A stretch of DNA of 64,000 bases from positions 1,674,001 through 1,738,000 of the forward strand of contig NW_026250403.1 of the NCBI RefSeq assembly GCF_024521635.1, given 5' to 3'. Shown piece by piece: positions 13,801-16,615 of this stretch. The translations under genes and the position numbers were made by a program. Source of the stretch: Tricharina praecox. Lineage: Eukaryota. Every line of letters starts with the position of its first letter. Position 1 is the first letter of the stretch. The notes below the pieces were generated by a model. The model was not told the origin of the DNA. It was given only the letters and a program-made list of their open reading frames with translations, and ran no database searches.

Positions 13801-14248
13801 AACTATCCGAAATCTGGGCATCAGGCGGTGCGTACCGAAGAAGAAGAAGATAGAGAAAAAGAAGAAGGACAAGGAAGGATGAGATGCACTGTGCAGCACC
13901 CACCGCAGGTAAAAGGGTTTGGAGCCTGTCTGCGGTCAAGCGCCGTTTGTATGGTGGGATTGAGCATGAGGCTGCGCTGGGATGCCCACCCTCCAGACAT
14001 GCTACGTATGATCGGCAATCAAGCACGGAACCTTTGGTCTCGCGCGAGCTTGCCACTAGAGTGCTCACTTTCTTTTGGATGGCAGACGGCTTTCAGTCCT
14101 CTGTTAATACCAGCCGGCCATCCCCAGAGAACGCTCTGCATCTTCACAGAGCCATCCCGCAACAGCAGCAGACGTCTGTCCCCGCCACAACACCAGCCGT
14201 ACCGAATCCTCCCATGTGGCGAATACGACGATACGCCCATCCCCAAAC

Positions 14249-16259
14249 ATGACGACGACCTTCATCCCTCCTACCGGATCCTTTACGTCGGACGTGGAAT
14301 CGGCGGAACGAGCGACGATGACGTCTTGGTTGACGGAGGAGAGGGTCCTGATGATGGTCAGTCCGGAGAAAAGAGCTGGGGGTTCGGGACTTCCAAGTCG
14401 GTGCTGATCGAGTCTCACACTCCCTACAGAACAATATGAGCGCTACGCTGGCTGGAATATCCGGGCTGTTCTGTTTGGTGGTGTTGGGCATCGTCGCGGT
14501 CCTCTACTCGAGACAAGAGACGCGAAAGGCATTGGATCGCCTGTCATTCAGATTGCTGGTGTACGCATTGGTTGCGGAGTGAGTGTCTTCCTTCTCAGTC
14601 TCAGTCTCCACTTCTGTCGTGTGGCGCGATGCATGGAAGGAGAAAAAAACTTCTGGAAGACAAGCTTACATCTGTGCGACTCTGCAGTGGTACGCTTTGC
14701 ACCCAAGCCAATCCCCAGAAAGAACATAACGGATCAAGAATCAATCGCTCACTTTTCCCCGGCTGTCGCTACAGTGATTTATAGCATCAGTTACATTATC
14801 TGTGTCAAAGTTTCGGGCGGGTTCTGGTGCGGTTGGTCTTCCTCAATCATCGCCCGTCGCTTTCGCTGTCGCTGACACCTGAAGTACAGTTGCTGGCCCA
14901 TGGTTGATCCAGTTCTGGCTCGGTGTCGCAAACTGGTTCATCCTGTGCATAGCCCTCAACCTGCAGCTCGTCCTCGTCCATTCGGTCGATGGCCTAATGC
15001 TCGAGAAATGGTTCGTGTCTTCCACCGACTAGGGCCTTCAAGATCGCTTGCTGACAAGGTTTATTCAAGGTATATCATCGTGCCAATTGCACTCAACCTC
15101 GCAATCAGCCTTCCACCATGTATGTTTCCTCCGTCCCTCCATCTTTCAACGACATTCACCGCCTAACAGGATCCGACCATAGTGATCAAGGGCAAATTCG
15201 GCTGGGATCCAGTCATTGGCGTATGCTGGTTGACCGACCACAGCGTGCACAACCGGCTGGTGTGGCAGATAGCAACACAGCTACTGTGGATCGTGCTGGC
15301 GGAGGTTATAACCATGCTATGTGCCGGCATCACAATTGCACATCTATATAAACACAAGGTATTTCCTCCGCTTCGTCCTCCGAGTGAACCATCCACTTAC
15401 AACCGCTACCGGGGGTGGACAGTTTACATCCCTCAAAGTCATCAAACGAGACTCTTCGCATCAGAGCTCTCACCTATCCAACAACTCCAACGGCAAAGGC
15501 AATGCCGACTTCCACGCCAACCTGGCCCGCAGAACCGCAAATAATCTGACCACGCAACGGGGCTTCCGCAACGTCATCGTGCGAATCTGTTCGTTCCCTC
15601 CCCTCCCCACCACTCTCTCCCACTAACCACCTCCAGCCCTCTACCCAATCGTAATGACAATCGTCAATATGATCATCACGATCGGGGACATCCGGATATC
15701 GACGGCGGGAATCCACACGAGCGAGGACTACTACCTATACGCGGTATACTACGGGCTGTACGGGGCGCGGGGGATCTTCTACGCGATCATGGCCGTTCTC
15801 GACCCGAGTTTCATGCGCGCAATCCGGATCTACCGCGGCGAAACCCTCGATAGCAGCCACCACTCGCAGTCGTGCACCGACACGGGCGCAGGCATCAGCG
15901 TGCACACCGAGACAAGGTTCGAGGAGGAGTTCGCCTCGCCGTCGCGCGGCGGCATCGATGTGGAAATGCAGCCTGTGGGACTCAGGACTAATGTTGTCGG
16001 TGGCAGCGGCGCCAATAACATTAATATTAACAATAATAACAACAACAGCGACGACGCGAGACATACCCATTGGGGAGCTGAGAGCGATGTCTCCGTCGAC
16101 TCGAGGATCAAGGAGTCCCCTGACGAGGAGGATACAAGCTCGATTGCGGACCTGACAAATGAGGCGCAGGGCGATAGGATACAGGAGATCCGCGGGCAGC
16201 AGAAGGAGCGCGCGAGGATGAGACATGAGGCCGAGAGAGAGTTTAAACGGCAGATTTAG
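14249..16259 (+). CDS. 7-TM GPCR-like membrane protein (cAMP-receptor/Git3-like), 9 exons
   Basis: Inferred exons: 14249-14356, 14430-14578, 14688-14689, 14775-14831, 14890-15010, 15070-15119, 15183-15358, 15423-15588, 15637-16259. All introns are GT-AG and the joined frame is open. It gives hydrophobic segments and motifs LDRLSFRLLVYAL, CIALNLQLVLVH, FGWDPVIGVCW, RISLYPIV, RGIFYA..DPSFMRA, then a polar C-terminal tail. Confidence 0.8.
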
Positions 16260-16570
16260 CCAGCGGGTCATGACTCTTTTTTTTCTTTTTAATATTTACT
16301 TGGTACATATCTCTTTGGCTTTTGGATTTTGGATTTTGGTTTGGTGTTTTTTGGGATAGACGGTTCGGGCAGGTTGGATTTCCTATTCATGGCAAGAAGC
16401 GTTTGTGTTGTGTTGTGTGTGTGAGCGGATTTCTGGCGGCATGGAATGTAGATATCATGGCGTGTTTTGAGCGTACGGATGTAGGTATGTGGATATCATG
16501 TATGTATGAGGTAGTAATGTAGTACGGTATGGGAACAAAACTCGGAGTGTCTTCGACAAGCTGGTAGCGG

Positions 16571-16615
16571 GAAGAAGAAGAAGAAGAAGAAGAAGAAGAA
16601 GAAGAAGAAGAAGAA
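16571..16615. repeat. (GAA)15 microsatellite
   Basis: Perfect trinucleotide run. Confidence 0.95.

Follow-up and report, generated by a model that had tools for sequence, protein, structure and literature searches.

Exons shorter than three nucleotides (nt) are already known. A 1-nt exon has been described in the CYP621A P450 genes of Fusarium (2026; PMC12940212) and 1-nt exons in the plant genes APC11 and VPS55 (PMC4674806, PMC8831610), and sequential, intron-defined removal of the flanking introns has been proposed for the Arabidopsis 1-nt exon (PMC4674806). Here we describe a 2-nt fungal case. It lies in a stretch of 64,000 nt from Tricharina praecox (contig NW_026250403.1, positions 1,674,001 to 1,738,000, forward strand), hereafter the window, whose own numbering we use throughout, within a gene for a receptor-like protein with seven transmembrane (TM) segments at 14249-16259 (+). 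We hold it highly probable that the mRNA of this gene contains a 2-nt exon, TG, at 14688-14689. What supports the micro-exon is the sequence of the mature RNA, the canonical signals on both sides of TG, a second species in which the arrangement is conserved, and the need for the restored residues throughout the family, with three lines that are independent of one another: transcript contigs that carry TG, 50/50 homologues with the residues, and a conserved AG|TG|GTACGC in the second species. Titles and abstract openings in the literature on 2-nt exons showed no natural fungal case, and no splicing topic appeared among the titles listed for Tricharina praecox.

The gene is the public T. praecox gene BZA05DRAFT_440447 (100% identity for a query of 70 amino acids (aa) from the last exon), whose record is a "hypothetical protein" of 479 aa (P0001 in our alignments). 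Read with TG, it has nine exons and eight GT..AG introns and encodes 483 residues. Exon 2 (14430-14578, 149 nt), coding for TM1 and for TM2's first half, has a phase-2 end, GCG GA, directly before a GTGAGT donor, and the next ordinary exon (exon 4, 14775-14831, 57 nt, supported by contigs and homologues), which begins TG ATT TAT AGC and encodes the second half of TM2, requires one preceding base. Joining the two directly gives Asp-Asp-Leu-stop, with the stop at codon 89. The gap between them holds CAG|TG|GTACGC (14685-14695), so that TG, as exon 3, separates intron a (14579-14687, 109 nt, donor GTGAGT, acceptor CTGCAG) from intron b (14690-14774, 85 nt, donor GTACGC, acceptor CTACAG); the T completes the Asp86 codon as its third base and the G opens that of Val87. 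A branch-like CTTAC (14665-14669, A at 14668) stands 19 nt before the acceptor of intron a and a branch-like CTCAC (14748-14752, A at 14751) 23 nt before that of intron b, both within the 10-24 nt found for the other six introns of the gene. Those six measure 48-73 nt, and we counted the greater lengths of introns a and b as acceptable. Retention of intron a leads to a stop at codon 87 and retention of intron b to a stop at codon 118. The hexamer AGTGGT occurs 32 times in the window on both strands (shuffled mean, 27.7) and would be expected about 0.05 times on one strand of the 195-nt gap, where the single copy observed is at 14686-14691. A first-pass annotation made from the letters alone had already described the phase-2 end of exon 2, the base wanting before 14775, the stop after a direct join, the acceptor and donor around TG with their branch-like sites, and the stop caused by keeping the second intron, and all of these could be verified in the sequence.

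Transcript data were assembled Logan contigs aligned to 14100-16400; such contigs drop rare variants. Two data sets from different studies, X1 and X2, each contain 0.69 of the sampled words, which is about the share that a spliced transcript would contain. Their contigs, of 1613 and 1633 letters, skip every intron and show 0 mismatches to the window over ~1.6 kb of exons and untranslated region (UTR). The run type is recorded as 'RNA?'. We took both runs to be RNA, given that the introns are gone but one further contig, of 132 letters, keeps intron 1. This contig is found in both runs, extends unspliced through intron 1 (14327-14458) and has a depth of ~22 versus ~52 for the spliced form; intron 1 seems to be partly retained, which would bring an in-frame stop soon after exon 1. 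Two further data sets (X3, X4) cover only 157-197 letters near 15993-16224, outside the micro-exon junction. No contig covers 14639-14715, a gap that carries no information on whether introns are retained. At that junction, the contig joint is drawn from 14578 to 14774 as 'GT..CA' with one T between; since 14774 is a G, the RNA reads GCGGA-TG-TGATTT. This is the sequence that had been predicted in the first-pass annotation, where RNA across the junction was proposed as the check, and the assembled contigs of both X1 and X2 carry it.

The way in which the aligner drew this joint, with one letter between, and the fact that two letters are not uniquely mappable, could suggest that the extra letters come from elsewhere, by way of non-canonical sites (a 1-nt T exon and a GT..CA intron), of editing, or of an assembly artefact common to both runs. 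We find such a source scarcely credible: AG|TG|GT is the only decomposition of the RNA that places GT..AG on both introns, all six other introns of the gene are GT..AG, the identical sequence comes from two studies, and the hexamer and the donor are conserved in a species whose introns are only 56% identical to those of the window.

The public model solves the frame in another way. It has a single intron, 14579-14784, which ends at a TAG acceptor (14782-14784) 10 nt into exon 4, and it reproduces P0001 letter for letter: 14578 joined to 14785 is in frame and reads ..YALVAD-ISYIIC.., without VIYS and four residues shorter. The first-pass annotation rightly expected gene predictors to miss the micro-exon, as the 479-aa model omits TG, but it overlooked this second in-frame acceptor, which needs no micro-exon. 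The real question is which of the two in-frame solutions the cell uses. A HMMER search gave 441 relatives of P0001 with E up to 0.001, and we aligned the micro-exon model and P0001 with 60 of the best-scoring homologues (P0005-P0069, at least 290 residues; shorter ones were excluded). The four residues restored by TG, VIYS in T. praecox, are present in every one of the 50 homologues (of the 60 rows) that cover the site, where P0001 is gapped; the two closest read ..NCIYSIGYIIC and ..NCFYCIGYIIC against ..DVIYSISYIIC here. VIYS lies midway along the second hydrophobic helix (residues 79-97), and the earlier statement that inclusion of TG gives a continuous TM2 could be verified.

These data make it very unlikely that the public model is right, that is, that one 206-nt intron is removed, a 479-residue protein without VIYS is made and the RNA containing TG is minor or aberrant. 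Its joint is in frame and yields the deposited protein exactly, an in-frame acceptor also lies 10 nt downstream in the second species described below, and an isoform using the TAG acceptor could go unseen in contigs that drop rare variants. Against this, neither study's contig uses TAG 14782-14784, the acceptor would delete from mid-TM2 the four residues that all 50 homologues carry, another AG, the first past the branch site, precedes it, and conserved Tyr-Ser codons (TAY AGC) produce the downstream YAG incidentally. We conclude that the public gene model errs by four residues midway through TM2. Nothing flags the error, since an in-frame acceptor nearby lets a predictor give a plausible, shortened protein; an annotation failure of this kind is harder to detect than a frameshift and may be common.

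A metagenome scan with a 6-row alignment as query found eight orthologous loci (L001-L008). L001 and L002 are 99.7% alike and so represent one taxon; they read ..GCC GA|GTATGT...CCGCAG|TG|GTACGC...GCTGCAG|TA ATC TAC AGC, with the micro-exon at 6248-6249 of L002. All eight introns of the window map to homologous GT..AG introns in L002, giving an open frame of 464 codons with ..ADVIYSVGY.., and leaving out TG shifts the frame to a stop at codon 181. The two species share 1110/1455 positions in exons (76%) and 333/594 in introns (56%). Of the 38 nt reaching from the branch-like site to the end of the donor after TG, 31 are identical, compared with 47/91 for what remains of intron a and 17/45 for what remains of intron b. 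Both species share the intron b donor, GTACGC, while that of intron a differs (GTGAGT vs GTATGT). The equivalent of the TAG acceptor, in frame and 10 nt downstream, is also found in L002.

These two loci bear on the main rival for the window, in which there is no micro-exon, the strain that supplied the RNA has CAG|TGTGATT, and the window, through an assembly error or the loss of 2 bp, shows a frameshifted allele. Exon 4 starts with TG, and a TG/TGTG slippage difference would yield an identical RNA. In L001 and L002, however, the downstream exon begins TAATC, so that slippage of TG cannot explain the need for two letters; the frame nonetheless needs TG there, and CAG|TG|GTACGC is conserved in the intron. 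The contigs differ from the window in no other letter over their ~1.6 kb of exons and UTR, and a chance AGTGGT in the gap would be expected only ~0.05 times. We regard this alternative as highly improbable.

The other six loci (L003-L008), with a mutual likeness of 89-99.6%, stem from about three related taxa. At the phase-2 position of intron a they carry one short intron, AA|GTAGGT...AAATAG|C TGC GTT TAC AGC, and where intron b would be there is none. Conservation of the intron pair, which the first-pass annotation had suggested as a check, holds for one further taxon among these eight loci. Judging from these sequences, intron b may be a gain of the Tricharina lineage, two bases downstream of an older intron that the more distant orthologues have alone, or else the other lineage has lost it, and two lineages do not discriminate between these histories. 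Two specific origins found no support. An introner-like origin finds no second copy of either intron in the 64-kb window, where the best off-target blastn matches are 10-18 nt long with E >2. For a tandem duplication, the local score of intron a against intron b is 12, compared with a shuffle mean of 13.3, and 429/500 shuffles were as good. Relatives with a single intron provide a clean comparison for studying how a pair of introns can end up two bases apart.

The distant orthologues also contain a micro-exon of their own. It is 10 nt long, TT(T/C)TGGTG(C/T)A, encodes Phe-Trp-Cys and lies between two GTGAGT..TAG introns (L003:6344-6353, L004:3459-3468, L005/L006:6343-6352, L007:6521-6530 and L008:6501-6510); the window has one intron (14832-14889) at this place. 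The database protein P0005 is without the Phe-Trp-Cys residues (..VSPG--VTAG..), and the family thus probably has a second micro-exon that was mis-annotated.

Several points weigh against the 2-nt exon. The RNA support consists of assembled contigs and not of reads, and we infer the RNA nature of the runs. The two letters are not placeable by alignment, so that it is the canonical flanks and conservation that assign them to 14688-14689. A 2-bp difference between strains is excluded only indirectly, through L001 and L002. GTACGC is no strong match to the donor consensus. The micro-exon is found in 2/8 orthologous loci, both from one taxon, while 6/8 have a single intron. Finally, the TG form may be accompanied by a minor isoform spliced as the public model has it, at TAG.

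Under the 2-nt exon reading, two ordinary U2-type introns flank TG, each complete with GT donor, CTNAC branch-like site and CAG acceptor, and removal of both leaves TG between GCGGA and TGATTT, restoring the frame and placing Asp-Val-Ile-Tyr-Ser in mid-TM2. Short fungal introns are recognised as units (intron definition). A 2-nt exon would offer no room for the 3' splice-site complex of intron a and the U1 small nuclear ribonucleoprotein on the intron b donor at once, and for this reason the introns are probably removed one after the other, by intron definition, along the lines suggested for the 1-nt exon of Arabidopsis (PMC4674806); either order would leave a normal substrate for the second step.

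RNA structure around the micro-exon gave no sign of help in either species, with fold z values of 0.56 (window) and 0.01 (L002). A consensus fold, built from two sequences only, has 11 pairs, 1 of them compensatory, and its core pairs GCTTAC with GTACGC; we take this core pairing as no evidence of structure. As a separate observation, the branch-like GCTTAC of intron a (14664-14669) is complementary to the intron b donor GTACGC (14690-14695), and both are kept in L002. Branch sites resemble the 5' end of U1, and the complementarity is probably a trivial consequence of that likeness, but it could also bear on the order of the two splicing steps.

The first-pass annotation had raised the possibility that skipping of TG could switch the receptor off, and the frame would allow it. 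Contigs, from which rare isoforms are dropped, contain no TG-skipped or alternative form. A wider version of this idea would make the TG micro-exon a regulated decision point in TM2, with one pre-mRNA giving the full receptor, a receptor with TM2 one helical turn shorter (through the YAG acceptor), or a nonsense product (stop at codon 89). The outcome would then be set by the order or speed with which the two introns are removed, and the conserved weak donor GTACGC and the block of 31/38 identical positions would serve this control. We consider such regulation unlikely, but if it is true, fungi would offer in this locus a natural case for studying how obligatory, ordered (recursive-like) splicing proceeds under intron definition.

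The protein itself was called a G protein-coupled receptor (GPCR) in the first-pass annotation, a name that stands at the level of the fold and finds no Pfam family reaching threshold behind it. Hydrophobic segments lie at residues ~43-61, 79-97, 110-135, 146-164, 196-214 and 272-290, and a weaker seventh completes the seven TM segments. The AlphaFold model of the orthologue P0005, from a 34-row alignment, has a mean predicted local distance difference test (pLDDT) score of 74.5 and a predicted template modelling (pTM) score of 0.69, with seven long helices and pLDDT >87 over residues 21-210. Its structure matches ranked 1-50 are all GPCRs (Frizzled, Smoothened, adhesion, class A), with E values of 6e-7 to 7e-5 among the best and TM by target of 0.4-0.72 for the best matches. 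For P0001 and its relatives, Pfam returned no family at the gathering threshold, and single-exon translations gave nothing usable; 7tm_1 appeared in 2/18 and 3/34 homologues, the two scores shown (25.9 and 28.6 bits) being below the 30.5-bit cut-off. Comparison of the family profile with PDB sequences gave no match at E up to 1, and the protein atlas gave a lead only, to fungal GPR1/Git3/Dicty_CAR clusters (feature score 0.97). The predicted structure thus supports a GPCR-fold 7TM protein as the gene product.

The remainder of the gene follows the contigs and the homologues. Exon 1 (14249-14356) starts with the ATG at 14249 and has 36 codons, with the joint 14355/6 to 14429/30 in the X1 and X2 contigs and the same N-terminus as P0001, and intron 1 (14357-14429, 73 nt, GTCAGT..CTACAG) is supported by contig joints and by the homologue alignment. 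Exons 5 (14890-15010), 6 (15070-15119), 7 (15183-15358), 8 (15423-15588) and 9 (15637-16259) come after introns at 14832-14889, 15011-15069, 15120-15182, 15359-15422 and 15589-15636, respectively, supported by contigs and, for exons 5 to 8, by homologues; all, like exons 1 to 4, are on the + strand. The stop codon is TAG at 16257-16259, and the contigs continue to at least 16400. An Asn-rich low-complexity run (..NNININNNNNN..) in the C-terminal tail, at 16009-16047, is absent from the L002 orthologue. Purine-rich microsatellites of the (GAA)n type flank the gene on both sides, at 13838-13875 and 16567-16601, and the downstream run extends beyond 16600. Among the database relatives, P0004 and P0007 are "proteins" that are in fact read-through open reading frames translating introns (..LYKHKV....QFTS..), evidently from a prokaryotic gene finder applied to fungal metagenome contigs, and such entries inflate and distort alignments of the family.

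Two known kinds of intron arrangement resemble this locus without accounting for it. Recursive splicing as described for Drosophila at zero-nucleotide ratchet points (bioRxiv 10.1101/006163) likewise has an acceptor directly followed by a donor within what seems a single long intron, and likewise implies removal in two steps. Here, two coding bases stay in the mRNA, which rules out a zero-nucleotide recursive site, and with introns of 109 and 85 nt stepwise removal is not needed for reasons of length. The stwintrons of Pezizomycotina (PMC5639578, PMC5587772) are also two apposed introns removed consecutively, and a connection with the gain or shift of introns has been made for them too. A stwintron, however, has an inner intron lying within a splice signal of an outer one, with no base remaining between the two, whereas TG stays as an exon and introns a and b each have complete signals of their own, which rules out this explanation.

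The closest likeness is to the Fusarium CYP621A exon (PMC12940212). Both are ultra-short exons of filamentous ascomycetes with canonical AG/GT flanks, both were found through mismatched exon phases and are needed for a conserved segment of the protein, and both are conserved in orthologues, find support in public RNA data and escaped annotation pipelines. The present exon differs in having 2 nt instead of 1, in belonging to the Pezizales and to a 7TM receptor-like family, in having an in-frame alternative acceptor that gives a shortened and not a broken predicted protein, and in having an outgroup that shows the single-intron state. The plant exons of APC11 and VPS55 are likewise constitutive, shorter than 3 nt, conserved and absent from reference annotations (PMC4674806, PMC8831610), and in VPS55, as here, omission of the exon alters the helices of a membrane protein (PMC8831610, PMC4674806). 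They have reverse transcription PCR and reporter evidence, whereas the fungal TG exon is known from transcript contigs only. The TG exon leaves the known picture of how splicing works unchanged and shows once more that splicing under intron definition can cope with next to no exon. As a transcript-backed fungal exon of 2 nt, it falls between the published 1-nt exons and the micro-exons of 3 nt or more.
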